Assembly (NCBI RefSeq): GCF_006345805.1
Contig: NC_042998.1
Location: 75,392,001-75,456,000, forward strand
Reading direction: 5' to 3'
Length of the DNA stretch: 64,000 nucleotides
Origin: Octopus sinensis
Taxonomy: Eukaryota
The position numbers and the translations under genes were made by a program. Below the pieces are notes generated by a model that was not told where the DNA came from, did not search any database, and worked only from the letters and a program-made list of their open reading frames with translations. Shown in pieces: positions 2,065 to 56,249 of the stretch; positions within the stretch are counted from its first letter, which is position 1; the number at the start of each line of letters is the position of its first letter.

Positions 2065-3340
2065 TTGAAATTTATAGAAAAACAAAAGACGAAGATAGGT
2101 GTATAAACAACAAGCAGATGTATTAGTTTGGCGCTCGGGAAGGTGAGAAAGTCTTTCACATTTCGAGCTTACGCTGTTCAACAGAAAGGAACACGACGAA
2201 ATAAACAGAAGGAAAATAAAAACTGAAACTTTTGGAGTTACCGGTCAATCATGACAACTGGTTGGACACAGATAATTAGACAGGGGAGCTAGGAAGAAGG
2301 GGAGATAATAAATATTGGTGATCTAAAAACGAAGGCGCGCGTGCGTATGTGTATGTGAGAGTGCGTATGTGTATGTGAGAGTGTCTGCGTGTAGATAGGG
2401 GCTGGTGACTTTGATGTGTTGATGTGTGAGTGTGTGTGTGCGTCTGTAATGTGTGGGCGTGTGGATGATGGCGTGGGTGCTGGGAAGTGATCCGTGCTAG
2501 TGTGTGCGAGGCGGTGTGATATGATGTGGTGGTGTGGTACGGTATGGCAATGTTGGAGTGAGGGGATGTGAGTGTAGTGTGTGGGGGTAGGGTGGGGTAG
2601 GTGGGAGCAGTGGTGGCGCATGTTGGAGTGAGATGTGTGGGAGAGGATGGAGGGGGTATCACTGAAAGGGGAAGGTGGGTAGGAGTGAAGCGAGGAAGTA
2701 GGTATCAGATGAAGAGAGAGGAACGAGTCAGATGACGAGGAGATAGCGGGTTGAGCCCAAGTGGCCAAATGGTCGAAGAGAGAAGATACATTCTTGTTCA
2801 CGGCGAAGGTGCGAGACCGGATGGCCCCTATGCAAAGACAGTCCGAACACAGAGAGATGTTGTAATGAATGACCGGTAGACGGAAATAGCGCAAGACCGG
2901 GGTGTTATTGCCGAGTCTAATGTCTCGGAGGTGTCCCGCAAACCGGTCAGCCAACCGCCGTCCTGTTTGACCGACGAACAGAGAAGGACAGAATGAGAAG
3001 TAGATGCAGTAAATGACGTTGCGAGAAGTGCAGATAAAGGAGTCAGTGATATGATAGGGACGGTGATGGGTACCTGCGAGGTAGGGGCAAGTGCGACAGC
3101 GTGGACGGGAACAGGGGAACGAGCCAGGTGGGATTAGGAAGTCATGTATGTTGTGGGCTCGTTTGAAGGAGGGGTGGGGTAGGTTGGAGAAGATGGGCGA
3201 AGTGGAAGGGTCGGACTGGAGTCACCGGAAGGCTCGGAGAATGGTACATTGGAGGGTGAAGGGGTCGTAGGTGAGGGAAACGGAACACGGGTAACGGCGG
3301 GGTGGGGGTGGGGAGGTATAGTAGATGCACGGTCCACGTA
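2060..3340 (-). mobile_element. Penelope-like element 3' portion (GIY-YIG endonuclease remnant, CA-rich 3' region, pLTR with degenerate hammerhead)
   Basis: The minus strand reads ...CSRPRCRTCPY...SFICTSRNVIYCIY...LFVGQTGRRLADRFAGHLRDIR, a Cys linker followed by a GIY-YIG motif. A hammerhead-like ctttCTGTTGA..gc/gc..GAAA..aaag lies at 2153-2188. Confidence 0.85.
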
Positions 3341-4414: not shown

Positions 4415-5313
4415 ACGTATCATCTGATTAAAAGGATGAGCCTATATGAGCAGAAGACTATGCATGGATATGTCAGTAGAAAGCTCCGTAATGACAGTAA
4501 CATCAATCATCAAAGCAGTTTATCATGGACGAATAGCCGGATTACTATGTCATTCTTTGAAAGGTATCGTTAGCAATCCAGGAATAGGAAATGTCAACCA
4601 AGTACCTGATGCACAAAAGGGATAAATAGTCAGGAAAAGTGGTAAAATGTGACAACTGATGCAGACTTTGTGGAGTTCACACTGTAGATATCACCCACAC
4701 CATAAGCAGTTGTCCGAAAATGTCATCACGGTTTATCAACCGATGAGACATGATGTTGTAGCTAGGACATTCTATAATGAAATCTGTCGGAAATATAATC
4801 CCGAGGACAATGAAATAAGAACGTACAATATGGTACAAGTCATAGCCACTCAAGATAAAAAGGTATACTGGTGGAATGTACCAGTGAAGACCTCAATAAA
4901 ATCAAAACACAACAGACCTGATATAAAGATTTGGGATAGAGAAAAGAAATTGTGCACTGTTGTAGAAATTAGCTGCCCAGCAGATTTTAACATAAAGCTA
5001 AAGATCAGTGAAAAAGAGAACACCTATGCTGAACAATTGAGAAATTGAAGTCTCTCTATCCAGATTACAAGATTCGGTTTATATCTGTAATTATTGGGGC
5101 CCTGGGATATGTAACACCCTACCTAAATACCAATATTGATAATTAAGCTTCTCAGAACTAGAAAGATGGAAACTAATCCGAAGACTACAGATACAATCCA
5201 TCATTGGCACTGTAAAATCTGTAAATCCAGTTTATCATTATATTATATATGAGCATGTCTAGATATGGAACTATATGCATGTGAATACATACATAAAACA
5301 TACAAATCTGCAC

Positions 5314-10682: not shown

Positions 10683-11146
10683 TTGTGTGTAGGGTCAGTT
10701 GGGCACCGTCTGTGAGAATTGCACGATGTGGCAATTTACTCTGCCAAAAATTTGTAAACGACATGCTGTACAGCTTGACATTCGTACCGGAAGCTCCAAT
10801 ACAAACAGATGGTGAACACACAGAACAACAGCTGCCTTGCTGTGTCCCCAAAACATATACCGACAGAGATAAAAATCAAGCATCCAGTGAACAACATGGT
10901 GTTTGGAGTGATCACTAGTGATGGTGACTTTATGCCTCTATTCATCTTCCCACACAGCCTCAAAACCAACACGGAGGCCTACATCAAGTGCCTAGAGGGG
11001 GTAGTGGTACTCTGGGTCAAGAGGGTGGATGCTGGAAGATCGTATATCTTGCAACAAGACTCTGCACCATACCAAACAAGCAGGAAATCCCGTCAGACAA
11101 TTTCTGCGACCACATCACCCCTAACATTTGGCCACCTAACTCCCCG
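10683..11146 (+). mobile_element. Tc1/mariner-superfamily transposase fragment (pseudogene)
   Basis: KHPVNNMVFGVITSDG...YIKCLEGVV...YILQQDSAPYQTS, then a frameshifted WPPNSP: the catalytic-domain motifs of DD(E/D) transposases. Confidence 0.85.
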
Positions 11147-11699
11147 AGTTAGGCGAGTTTATCAAATATGTGTATGTATGTATACATATACATATATGCA
11201 TATATATATATGTGTGTGTGTGTGTGTGTATTATATTATTATTATTATGGCATATTATATTATATCATGTTATAAACTGTTGATTAAAAATTCTAATTCG
11301 TATCTTGGTAGACATAAGCATTCATTCAATTTTTTGTGCTATATTAAGCCTTACAATTTAATATAAAATTCCTATCAGTATTTAGTAACTTTTAGCCATT
11401 GATGAATGTTTTAAGTCTTGCGTTTACAGCAGTAATCTCTTACCTATTTGGGTGTTGTTTGTCTCTCGCTATTACTGATTTTGACCTTTTTTATCGTGGT
11501 TGTTAAAATGAACGATCGATTTTTAAGAATGTTTCACAGTTGCATGCAACATGTGTGTTTATGGCTCGTAGTTTTTTCTTTGCGTTCTTTAAAATTTCAT
11601 TTGCATCATTGTTTAATTAACACTAGAATAATGTTTCATTGTTTCATTTAAATTCTGTTCCGTACTCGTTAAGACAGACGTTCAAAGTATAATAGCTCA

Positions 11700-41700: not shown

Positions 41701-42429
41701 CAGTTTCGCACCTTTAACGATAATACTGAGTGCTTCCCAATTGGTGGTACCCGGAAAAAAGTTTTCTTGCGGAGAACTAGGGACAAGAGCAAACGTTTTG
41801 TTTGTTTGGGTTCGTTTGACCTGTCCCTAATTCTCAGCAAGAAAACCTTTTCCGGTGGGCACCGCCAACTGGTATATATATGTATATATATATATGCAAT
41901 GAAATTAAATCTGACTGAAACCGGTAATAGCCTCAAAGAATGGACATTGTCAATGCTAGTTTGGAAGAGAAATGACAGCACTAAATATGAAACACTCAAA
42001 AAATATTTAGAAATAATAGATACAATATTTGATATTAATAATTATCTAAGTAATGGGGTAAATTTGACTGATTACAAAATACCTCATTAATTTGTGAACA
42101 CCAATTAAATTGTTTTAGCAATGGCATTATATTCTTACGATGACACGGTATTACTGAGAATTAATTACCTTACTTACTTCAAACATATTCATATTTTGAC
42201 TCGCGGCTAAACTATATCTAATTAAGGATGTGCAAATGTAAAAGTGTTCATCGTCTTCTTCAATATATGAAGTAGCTTCAATAATAGAATCAGCAGAATT
42301 TTATATTTTCATTCAAAGCTAATGATGATGGCGATAATGGCGATTATGGTGATGATGAGAAGAAGAAGAAGAAGAAGAAGAAGAAGAAGAAGAAGAAGAA
42401 GAAGAAGAAGAAGAAGAAGAAGAAGAAGA

Positions 42430-49020: not shown

Positions 49021-49382
49021 CGTCATTATTATCGTGAGGATTATAAACATGATGGCCATGATCAGAATCATTTCGACCAAAATGGTGATTTTTCACGAAT
49101 AATAAAAATAAAGTTTATGGTACGAGTGAGATGATGATTACCTTTGTGATGTAGTCGTTATATTTGTTACTATTGTTGCTGTTTAATCCTTGTCAGCTGC
49201 GATCTCGAAGAAGTCTATATACTCAAAGTCTTTCAAGTTGTGTCCATGTCTGTGTATCTGTTATATATCAAATGTAGTATTAGTTGTGTAAGACTACTAG
49301 GAGATCCAGCTACTTTACCAGATGGACCGTATATAATAGGTATTTCCAACAATTCAACATTGAAACCACCAGCTCATCAAAA

Positions 49383-49784
49383 TCTATTCGTAGACGTGGT
49401 GCCGGTGGGACGGTGTCACATGCGACGGGTAGGCCAAGCTCCAGCGGCGCGAGGCCGGCATGGCGTCAAATCGAAGGAAGACTGATCGGATGAGACCGAC
49501 AGCCCCCACCCCCCGCGGCTGTCATCGGACTCTCATTCGGTATGAGCACTGAAGTGGCCTAGTTTCCTGGACGGGACGCGAGGCCAGGAGCAAGCCGGAA
49601 AGGCAGGCACCTACGCCCCACCACCTCTTCTCCCCGGGCCGGCTGAAGCGGGCACCCGTGCAGTGCGAACGCGAGCTCAATGCACAGGGAGTTCCCGGTC
49701 TATTAGAGTGGAGCGGGGGCCACTTCGCCAGTAGCACCAGCGGCACAGGCTGGAGCTTCGCGTAACCCCAGATACTGCCACCAC
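49383..49784 (+). ncRNA. Unidentified GC-rich, highly structured RNA-like element
   Basis: About 65% GC by hand count. Nested helices 49404-49417/49771-49782, 49436-49445/49749-49758, 49485-49504/49517-49541, 49551-49559/~49718-49726 and 49564-49570/49584-49590. G-U pairs and UUCG/GGAAA loops favour the + strand. Confidence 0.55.
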
Positions 49785-50326
49785 TAGTAAAAGTAATTTA
49801 ATATGCATCATATATGTATAAATCAGTAAAACAATTCATTTCGTTCTCCATAAGGTGCCACTGCATGGCATCACGAGCAACTGTCTTCAAATAATACTAT
49901 TTCCGCCGTTAAAACGCACTTTTACTCTGCCTGCGATACCAATGACTCATTAATTGCTGTATATGCGAAATTTCGCTTTGTAATTGATTGTTAGAGGATA
50001 CTTCTTACCGATGACGCAGAAATCATATAATCTAGTAAGTTCTGCTGCTGCTACTGCCATTGCTACTGCTGCTGCTGCTGCTGTCGCTGGAAACTTTTCT
50101 CCCGCTACTGATACTTTCGTGCTTTTTTCGCTCTATACATCTTTACGAGATGCTTTCTCGAGACGAATGCCGTAGTACTGTGGCGTTCTTGAAATATATC
50201 CTCGTTAAGTAAGATACACAGATTATAATTCTGTACTAATACTGATTATTTATAATAATATATATATGCAAGCATATATGTATGCATGTATGTATGTATG
50301 TATAGCTAGCTAGCCAGCTAGCTAGC

Positions 50327-50754: not shown

Positions 50755-50870
50755 GGTATCTATGAGATACCGCCACAATGGAAATAGCACCCTAAACCTG
50801 ACTCTCAAACCAGATTTTTAGAGTCAGGTTTTGGCTGCTTTTTCCAGCATGGTAATATCTCTTAGATACC
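50755..50870. mobile_element. Small foldback MITE
   Basis: About 51-bp imperfect TIRs ggtatct..gagata....aaacctgactct / agagtcaggttt....tatctc..agatacc around a 14-nt spacer. Confidence 0.65.
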
Positions 50871-52946: not shown

Positions 52947-55900
52947 TCATTCAAGTAGTGAGTTCTTGTTGGGTGAGTTGTATCCAATTATGGGTGGCTT
53001 ATCTGGTATTCTTTGAAGGAATCTATCCAGACTCCGTTTAAAGTTGATGGGATCCTTTTCCTCTTTGATCTCTTTCGGGACAATGTTAAATAGGACAGGA
53101 CCTGTTGAGGAAAATAAATTATGTTGCAGTGTACATGTATGCTGTGATCTTGGATTGGGCAGGGGACGTATGACCCGTGGTCCCAGTCTTGGATGAACCT
53201 TGAAGCTGATGTTCAGGTCGTTTGGGCAAAGTTGGCGGTATATTCTCCACATCGTACAAATGATGTACCGCTCACGGCGACGCTGGAGAGAGTAAAGTTT
53301 CAAGGCTTTAAGGCGATCCCAACAATCGAGAGCAGCCATGCCTTCAATTCGTTTAGTGAGTGCCCTCTGGGGTGACTCAATCCTCGAGATGTTTTGTCTT
53401 GTATGGGGAGACCACAGTGGGCAGCAGTATTCGAGGTGTGGCCGCACAAAGGAAGAGAAAAATGGTATGATGACACCTTGTTCTCTGGACCGGAAAGTTC
53501 TTAAGATCCAGGAACTCATCCTACGAGCTATATCGACCTTCTTGTTGGTGTGTGCACTCCAACTGAGAATGTCATCAACAATTACACCCAGTTCTCTGAT
53601 ATTGTTAGAGGCCGTGAGCGGTTCCCCTGAAGGTATGAGAGTATGGCTGTTTTAGTGAGGAATTTCTTCCAAAATGCATCAGCTCAAATTTTTCCTCGTT
53701 CAGTTGCATTTTGTTTCTGTCTGCCCATTGACTCACAGCATATAGATCAGACTGGAGTTGAGTTCGGTCTGCTTCTTCATTGGAGCTTAGTGTCATCAGC
53801 AAATATTTTCACTTTGCAGTAATGTACGACACTGGAAAGGTCGTTTATATAAATTATGAAGAGTAGCGGACCCAAGACAGTACCCAGGGGGACACCGCTG
53901 GTGACTTTTGCTGGGCTTGAGTGGACTCCATCAACTACAACATGTTGTGTTCTATTCGCCAGGAAATACTTAATCCAGTGTAGAACTTTTCCACGGATTC
54001 CAACATTTGCCAATTTTGAGAGCAGGATATTATGGTCTACCCTGTCGAACGCTTAACTGAAGTCAAGATATATGACATCAGAGTTCGAACCTGTTCCCAA
54101 GGCTTTGAGTACATCTTCAATGTGGTGTAAGAGTTGTGTTAGACAGTCTCTGCCATAGCGAAAGCCATGCTGATTTGCATTTAGGAGTTTGTGAGTCTCC
54201 AGGAAGTCAGCTATCCTTGATCTTAACACTCTTTCAAACACTTTAATGATGTGGGAGGTGAGTGAGATTGGGCGATAGTTGACTTCGAGGGATCGGTTTC
54301 CCTGTTTGAAAACCGGGATGACTGACTGGGATAGAAACTGTTTCGGTATATAACCTGCGTCTAACGAATTTCTCCAGAGGTTGGTCAGAGGGACTGCAAG
54401 TTGGTGTCTACATTCCTTCAGGAGACTAGCGGGGAATCTATCAGGGCCTACAGGATAGTAGTATTTGACCTCATTTATTGCTGCTACGATGTCAGTGGTA
54501 GTGAAGGTTATGTCTGAGATTTTATGTTGGGAGTCAACTTCGTTCGCTTCTCTTACGTCAATATCAGTGGGAACACTAAAGACAGAGCAGTATTGTTTCT
54601 GCAGTATTTCTGCCATTTCTTTAGCATCGTGTTTGGGAATGCCGTTATCATCAATCAATGGCCCAATGGGTGAGACAGTGGTTCTATGCTTATTTGCATA
54701 AGAATAGAACACTTTTGGGTTCTGTTTGATGTTTTTGATTACCCACTGTTCCTCCACAGCTCTTTGATTTTCAATGGAGGTTTTCATGTCGGTCTGCAGA
54801 TGAAGTTTTTCCAGCTCTAACCTTTTCATTGTTGTTGAATGTGGATGTTGTGTGTGGGAATATTTTAATTGGTTGATTTTTTTGTTGAGTCTTTTCATGC
54901 GCCTGATGAGTGTTTTTTTCTTTTTAAGGAGCCGGTTTCTGTTTGTGTTAGTAGATTTCGTGGGAGCGTGTTTAGAGCATGTATAGATGACAATGTTTTC
55001 AAAGTGCTGCCATGCTGTCTCAATATGGGTGGAATTGAGAGTAAAAGACCAGTCGATGAAAGACAGATCCTTTCTGATTGCTCCCCAGTCCGCTTTATGG
55101 AAGTTTATGTTGTCAAATGGGTGCCATGGAGTGGGATTGGCTTTTATATGTCGGGAATTAAAATTGCAGAATACCATTTCGTGGTCTGAGAGGAGAGTTT
55201 TTTCAACTGAAATACTGTGAACGAAGCTAGAGTGATTGGTCAATACCAGATCGTTTTATCCTGTCTCGTTGGTTCGAGCACTAGATGAGTCAGGAAATAT
55301 TCATCCATTAGATTAAAGAGCAGTTCTGCTGCTGCTCTATCTGATGTAGAGCATTTGCCTAACTTCAGAGTATTTGTGAGCCAGTTCACATGAGCGAGGT
55401 TAAAATCACCCATCACTAGTATGTTTCCGGAGTGGTACTTCCGAAGGAAGGACTTGACTTTGCTAAGGCACTCTTCAAAGCACTTTAGAGGTGCTTGGGG
55501 AGGCATGTAAAGACCAACAATGATTATGTCCTTGGCCTTGCTAAATAGTGATACCGATTCACAGTAGCCATTGGAAAATATGTTCTCGGCATCAAGTGAA
55601 AAGGAGTCATGGATAAAGATGGCTGTCCCTCCCTTATTCCGGTCTGTGCGATCCGCACGAACAATGGTGAAATCTTTTATTTTCACCTCGGCGTCCATAT
55701 GGGTGTTGTTCAGGTGAGTCTTGGTAAGGATAAAGAAAGGGAAGCAATGTGCCGTTTCGGCAAGCCAACTCTCTATATATGGGATCTTCCATTTTTGGGC
55801 AATAATTGATGGGTTGATGCCATGTACATTTAACAGGAATGTCGAGGTAAGGGAAGCTTGATGTTTGCATTGTTCTAAGTTATGTTTTATGTTGTTCAGT

Positions 55901-55986
55901 GGTAACAATGTGGGTAGTTCTTGTATGGAGCTGTGTGTGTATGATTTTCTTGTTGGTAGTGGGTGTGTGGTCCTTGTGATTTGCAT
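52947..55986 (-). pseudogene. LINE ORF2 (AP endonuclease plus reverse transcriptase), disrupted
   Basis: APE motifs LNVHGI, LTKTHL, RADR...GGTAIFI, MGDFN, SDH. RT motifs NYRPISLTS, QHGFR, YLDFS*AFD (stop at 54053-54055), GVPLGTVLGPLLF, FADD. Frameshifts near 55243, 53790 and 53620. Confidence 0.95.
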
Positions 55987-56249
55987 AGGTGGTTGCTGAT
56001 AGTTCGTTGGATATCCTGGCTTAGGTCGGCCTTCATATTTTCTAGGTAAGTCAGTAAAAAAGAGTTACCTCTTTGATTTGCCACTTGGTCAGAGGATACA
56101 TATTTCATTTTGGTGTTATTTGGTATTATGGTTTTTTTCATGATTCTGTCTACGTTGTTTGATTGTAGGAGGAGAAACGTGGTTGTATTTTGTTCTTGTT
56201 GTTGTCGTAGATTTCCTCCGTTGCTGTTCATATTTATTTTGTGATCGTT

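Follow-up and report, generated by a model that had tools for sequence, protein, structure and literature searches.

A GC-rich island in an octopus genome is probably an old remnant of the 3' non-coding region of an extinct R2-clade retroelement

According to the R2 literature (PMC3414825, PMC3774820, PMC13580325, PMC5035012, PMC13188248), R2 elements are co-transcribed with the 28S rRNA, their RNA is released by an HDV-like ribozyme, the R2 protein binds the 3' UTR, and insertion proceeds by target-primed reverse transcription. R2 3' UTRs also serve as gene insertion templates (PMC13580325). A derived form is the R2 SIDE, a short internally deleted element, with cases from Drosophila treated by Eickbush and Eickbush 2012 (PMC3414825). 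In Table S2 of PMC13188248, R2-1_OVu, R2-1_OSi and R2-1_ORu are Octopus R2s, and cephalopod R2s account for six rows; the table gives published Octopus R2 3' UTRs of 698 and 709 nt, one with the remark 'Seems too long'. Our search of the literature on octopus R2 and rDNA and on short internally deleted retrotransposons found neither the sequence family nor the ORF-less rDNA element described below, and one on telomerase RNA and 7SK in octopus and other molluscs yielded nothing about the family.

The genome considered here contains an intact R2 at the 28S site (L025:734-5315, G000:C18:17535734-17540315). Its 1311-aa ORF comprises a reverse transcriptase (RT) and three zinc-finger-like motifs, and the best PDB structures are R2 proteins (E 5e-158). 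The element is close to the published Octopus R2s; its 3' UTR of 514 nt is unlike their 700-nt UTRs, which match loci L084 and L102. Overall, the 3' UTRs of Octopus R2s have a high GC content and measure 500-710 nt. The R2 3'-terminal hairpin, GTGGGACC(A/G)CCCAC, has 58 matches versus 4 for a control. At 21 of 40 fetched loci the 28S target lies at most 90 nt downstream of it, a count that covers 40 of the 58 matches and includes L088, L117 and L118, which were judged chance matches and excluded from the terminal-hairpin profile. Loci L081-L120 represent several R2 lineages with 35-99% protein identity to the intact copy and one common 3'-terminal hairpin; many of these copies are situated outside the rDNA clusters, with a stub of the 28S target. 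This hairpin, which many octopus R2 lineages retain at their 3' ends, is a candidate element for protein binding.

In the rDNA cluster that carries the intact R2, the R2 site of the 28S gene is also occupied by an ORF-less element, 1.6-1.9 kb long, for which there are 17 or more near-full matches (copies L061-L078, for example L068:485-2271, G000:C18:17546186-17547972). The element contains an R2 ribozyme core about 330 nt from the 5' end as well as the R2 terminal hairpin. In 10 of 18 copies the 28S target follows, in four the 5' junction with the 28S was recognized by eye, C9332 bears tandem copies, and the best tblastn match to R2 has an E-value of 0.07. We regard this molluscan family as a candidate R2 SIDE; being without an ORF and placed at the R2 site, it would widen the range of R2 SIDEs past the cases from Drosophila in PMC3414825. 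Two further loci (L119:940-2070 and L121:2300-3560) hold GC-rich stretches with an R2 tail, in which versions of the terminal hairpin recur internally, the repeat unit of L121 being about 295 nt, and no ORF was found upstream of these stretches.

The locus of interest is an island at positions 49383-49784 of the window, that is, of the whole 64,000-nt stretch of DNA that was analysed. Probably, the island is an old and inert remnant of an extinct non-LTR element of the R2 clade, from its structured 3' non-coding region, read on the minus strand. The corresponding features are as follows.

49390-49783, minus strand: probable piece of an R2-clade element, truncated at both ends, from its 3' non-coding region (3' UTR or SIDE body) and aligned to 10 other loci.
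49689-49724, minus strand: putative module of the R2 3'-terminal hairpin type (GTGG..CCAC followed by TAATA..ACCGG), internal and degenerate, from a profile of L119 and L121 only.
49396-49423, minus strand: putative further copy of the module, more decayed and lacking 10 nt, in the alignment columns that hold the module matches of L004, L050, L038 and L051.

The GC content of the island is 63% with 36 CpG dinucleotides, both being maximal among the 400-nt stretches of the window, and the description as a GC- and CpG-rich island in the first-pass annotation is thereby borne out. Contamination or misassembly, which that annotation had considered, is excluded because an 899-nt contig of organism C crosses the island into both flanks. 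This contig differs from the island by 5 substitutions in 402 nt plus a 2-nt insertion and from the flanks by 5 substitutions in 495 nt; the resulting divergence (1.2% in the island vs 1.0% in the flanks, p 0.76) is a test of constraint with little power, being derived from one contig at 1% divergence. Organism D differs at 1 position in 597 nt, and the island occurs under at least three organism labels beyond the possible source. The window copy is older than the split of the sampled organisms, and no clear target-site duplication surrounds it. Phage sequences yielded two chance 40-nt matches, plasmids and viral contigs none, and metagenome contigs three short matches without extension.

The island does not resemble a gene for a protein. 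The earlier statement that it contains no convincing ORF holds, as Pfam gives no match in six frames and codon-position bias is absent among the paralogues (43 ungapped blocks). A coding origin was considered for the family, several of whose frames look protein-like by eye, but was rejected: codon bias is lacking, 24 of 36 gaps are 1 nt long, and Pfam matches 0 of 18 frames.

The island had been described as an orphan, which is correct for the window, where there is no second copy, and incorrect for the genome: 10 other loci hold fragments of the same family, 52-85% identical over aligned columns. The loci are fragments whose ends are scattered. L038, L051 and L004 run past position 49390, and L003 and L015 run past 49783; since paralogues thus continue beyond either end, the source measured 600 nt or more, of which the window copy, too, is only a part. 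No other copy in this assembly exceeds 88% identity, and the source lineage is presumably extinct in it. Genome searches found no complete family element, nor was a family copy found between both 28S flanks. At the 11 family loci with flanks of up to 4 kb, and in the window, tblastn gives no ORF match at R2 level; an RT match 2.4 kb from L005 has 25% identity, the level of unrelated LINEs. One locus, L057, was dropped from the family, as it matched only a 16-nt pattern. In L002 (1480-1765) the family fragment lies at the centre of a palindrome that has TTAATTAA on either side.

The family is tied to R2 by hallmarks on the sister fragments, for which profiles were built from non-family copies only and run over 142 kb (the 10 family loci plus the window). 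In L038, the terminal hairpin (E 3e-8) and the family match are separated by 40 nt, and the sequence between the family body and the R2 end is alignable. L004 (1237-1632) is a chimera that consists of 28S target, ribozyme core, a family fragment and then an inverted family fragment; the ribozyme core (E 1e-4) abuts the family match, and 45 nt of the 28S target (E 3e-14) come just before it. The 5' module of the ORF-less element is found inside L015 (E 7e-5) and L003 (E 0.002). The hallmarks of all four loci agree on the orientation, with the minus strand of the window as sense. Strong R2 hallmarks are present in only 4 of the 10 sister loci. Of the 11 fragments, the module profile of L119 and L121 matches six in this orientation (E 0.0009-0.23) and L002 in the opposite one (E 0.9), leaving four unmatched. 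Among 130 comparisons with R2-type UTRs and elements, L051 is colinear with four 3' UTRs of R2s and falls as far from the end as expected (z 2.7-3.4, reached by 1-3 of 100 shuffles), and L003 and L015 are colinear with the R2-tailed L119 (z 3.3 and 4.1).

The R2 origin of the island rests mostly on these sister fragments because the window copy is without a strong R2 match. Its module match at 49712-49689 is the best in the window (E 0.1; E 0.22 in 142 kb) and weak when taken alone, a chance match of like score being found at 41870; at 49396-49423 the module profile gives no match in the window copy itself. Against 13 R2-type UTRs and elements there is no significant alignment of the window copy (best z 1.3), and a profile of nine present R2 3' UTRs does not match it. 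The R2 terminal hairpin is missing, as the copy stops about 70 nt short of it, and the profile of the HDV-like ribozyme P3/L3 core finds no match in the island. Without the ribozyme and short of the terminal hairpin, the window copy is likely unable to move. The 28S target (TTAAGG/TAGCC) adjoins 1 of the 11 family loci, namely L004, and is absent at the window copy. We note that the ends of the island pair together over about 28 bp, which was counted against its being an R2 fragment. Of the earlier proposal of a ribozyme-bearing retroelement module, the retroelement is retained, as an R2-clade element, and the ribozyme is not: the island probably corresponds to the 3' non-coding part, with minus-strand sense.

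Compared with the described systems, the family is like an R2 3' UTR in being GC-rich, non-coding and several hundred nucleotides long, and in having the same terminal hairpin at its end, by way of L038. Unlike an R2 3' UTR, its body is unalignable to the present 3' UTRs, has no ORF upstream and is located outside the rDNA; the window copy lacks the terminal hairpin and there are repeated internal hairpin modules. The likeness to an R2 SIDE consists in the ribozyme core that is joined directly to a non-coding body in L004, and in a module that the family has in common with the ORF-less R2-site element of this genome. In contrast to an R2 SIDE, the two ends, the 5' ribozyme core (L004) and the R2 3' end (L038), never occur in one ORF-less copy, and none is placed between both 28S flanks. 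As for the HDV-like 5' ribozyme of R2 (PMC3774820), a putative core, recognized by sequence, adjoins the family in L004, whereas the core is absent in the island. In our view the odds are about even between two sources, an autonomous R2 with a long 3' UTR and a non-autonomous SIDE, of whose body the island would then be part.

In either case, the source RNA would have been co-transcribed with the 28S rRNA and freed by a 5' HDV-like ribozyme, and its 3' end may have been bound by the R2 protein, leading to target-primed reverse transcription. Pieces would then have been copied or captured outside the rDNA, possibly by internal priming or by capture at DNA breaks. As found, an eye-catching CpG island is thus explained as transposon debris, of little significance in itself. 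Of greater importance are the hairpin shared by the octopus R2 lineages and the ORF-less family at the R2 site. A more far-reaching and rather doubtful reading sees in the island a fossil from a class of octopus retroelements, so far undescribed, that have R2 tails and no ORF and are built of tandem copies of the R2 3'-recognition hairpin, and which would have been mobilised by the R2 protein and escaped from the rDNA, with L119, L121 and the 1.6-1.9 kb family as relatives. If true, R2 parasites would exist outside insects and carry natural arrays of the protein-binding element.

An alternative, to which we assign a small probability, is that a host or foreign RNA was captured by template jumping of the R2 reverse transcriptase, so that R2 ends flank a non-R2 body. 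Jumps of R2 onto U12 and tRNA are reported in PMC3414825, L004 is a rearranged chimera, and the family body is unmatched by the present R2 UTRs. However, the body itself contains internal R2 terminal hairpin modules, L038 passes from the body to the R2 end through alignable sequence, and DNA searches of the genome revealed no intact source gene.

The reading as an R2-clade fragment departs from that of the first-pass annotation, which had interpreted the island as a closed multi-branch RNA of the plus strand and a candidate novel functional RNA gene. The features concerned are as follows.

49436-49445 / 49749-49758, strand not applicable: 10-bp helix, all Watson-Crick.
49485-49541: long hairpin, kept partly in paralogues.
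49551-49559 / 49718-49726: 9-bp helix, specific to the window copy.
49594-49604: 3-bp hairpin with one compensatory change.
49316-49336, plus strand: TATA-like GTATATAA and a 9-mer of the kind that precedes the RNase MRP gene, both external to the element.

The named 10-bp and 9-bp helices, the 11-bp hairpin stem and the pairings of the ends do exist where they had been placed; the fold that they were thought to form is not special. The folding z-score is -0.46 on the plus strand and -0.04 on the minus strand, with 26 and 48 of 100 dinucleotide shuffles, respectively, as good, and ten windows of 120 nt range from -1.64 to +1.59, none being special; a live R2 3' UTR has a z-score of -2.24 vs -0.04 for the island. 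Among 2000 shuffles, 4.9% attain two Watson-Crick helices of at least 9 bp, 8.9% attain one of 10 bp, and 60% attain five of 7 bp. Closure into a multi-branch fold finds little support in pair probabilities of 0.08-0.12 for the terminal helices and 0.01 for the ggcgc hairpin; the 10-bp and 9-bp helices have about 0.5 and the long hairpin has 0.9-1.0. The argument from G-U pairs for the plus strand fails, as G-U-containing helices of at least 8 bp number 13 on the plus and 37 on the minus strand. Stable UUCG tetraloops are closed by C-G; the UUCG loop of the island, claimed to cap a hairpin, is closed by A-U, and half of this hairpin falls outside the family homology.

Paralogues give the helices no support. 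Of 191 scorable pair cells 104 differ from the window copy, and of these 39 still pair on the plus strand and 42 on the minus strand, while 65 break on the plus strand; since the helices were picked on the window copy, the comparison is biased against them and indicates lack of support rather than absence. Double changes number 11, five of which are one event, namely the pair of the 3-bp hairpin that is G-C in the window copy and A-T in 5 of 5 paralogues. The long hairpin has mixed pairs and mismatches across five paralogues, the 9-bp helix retains 4 of 8 scorable Watson-Crick pairs in L003, the sole paralogue with both arms, and RNAalifold on seven 5' fragments predicts seven pairs with no compensatory change. 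Both arms of the 10-bp helix never occur in one single paralogue; the 5' arm of L004 pairs with the 3' arm of the window copy over 12 contiguous base pairs on the minus strand. We infer that some helices of the island are real relics of the source RNA, for example the 10-bp helix, which is likely a real domain-closing helix. In general, helices chosen by eye in a sequence of 63% GC need shuffle and paralogue controls.

That the window copy is a live or domesticated plus-strand ncRNA gene under the upstream TATA, the other loci being pseudogenes, therefore seems very improbable. It is the longest copy with paired ends, is present under the organism labels mentioned above, shows the one compensatory change, and the TATA and 9-mer resemble those of RNase P and MRP genes. 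Against this, the paralogues run past both ends into R2 hallmarks, z-scores are near 0, most helices are lost in paralogues, with the majority of changed pair cells breaking on the plus strand, 1 of the 5 organism C substitutions in the island breaks a proposed pair, and constraint relative to the flanks is not seen. The spacing of TATA and 9-mer is 13 nt vs 15-16 in RNase P and MRP genes, hence 2-3 nt off, the first T4 on the plus strand is at 49920, 136 nt beyond the island, and the RNase P and MRP genes are elsewhere. The upstream TATA-like sequence and 9-mer are likely due to chance.

Least credible, and largely refuted, is an ancient rDNA spacer or rRNA expansion segment: the island is GC-rich like the local rDNA and rDNA fragments are widely dispersed (40 matches to 5.8S), but blastn against 90 kb of rDNA clusters gives no match (best E 0.23), the lone weak match of the family profile in the rDNA clusters (E 0.22) falls at the R2 site, inside a copy of the ORF-less 1.6-1.9 kb element, and not in the spacer, and the rRNA core is absent in eight loci of the family search.

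Known RNA families were likewise searched for. In keeping with the earlier failure to recognize a family, no Rfam model matches over the island at E-values up to 10, 7SK models included; none reaches the gathering threshold in the whole window, and none is found over the family parts of eight loci. Hammerhead, twister and group I motifs were not seen in by-eye inspection. RNase P (RF00009) and RNase MRP (RF00030) were rejected, as the window is absent among their 7 and 11 matches and the genes are found on other contigs. Telomerase RNA was rejected too: for a telomere repeat that we assume to be TTAGGG, the only template-like sequence is TAACCCC at 49763-49769, which is lost in L003 and L015.

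Several minor observations were made. Two RNase P RNA genes are found 8 kb apart on C26, and there is an RNase MRP gene with TATA and T-run (L007, L008, L045). L010 is a second, shorter type of RNase P RNA on the AT-rich contig C10215 and may derive from another organism. The ITS1 in L021 (340-1500) has about three tandem copies with a unit near 370 nt. Within the window, a broken LINE with endonuclease and RT matches is located at 52947-56064 (minus strand). Three further stretches, each with no matching Pfam family, have frames that look like remnants of a Penelope endonuclease (2289-3221, minus strand), a Tc1/mariner transposase (10779-11366, plus strand) and a restriction-like endonuclease (4653-5048, plus strand). 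At 50755-50870 of the window there is a 55-nt inverted repeat, 80% complementary, with a 6-nt loop.
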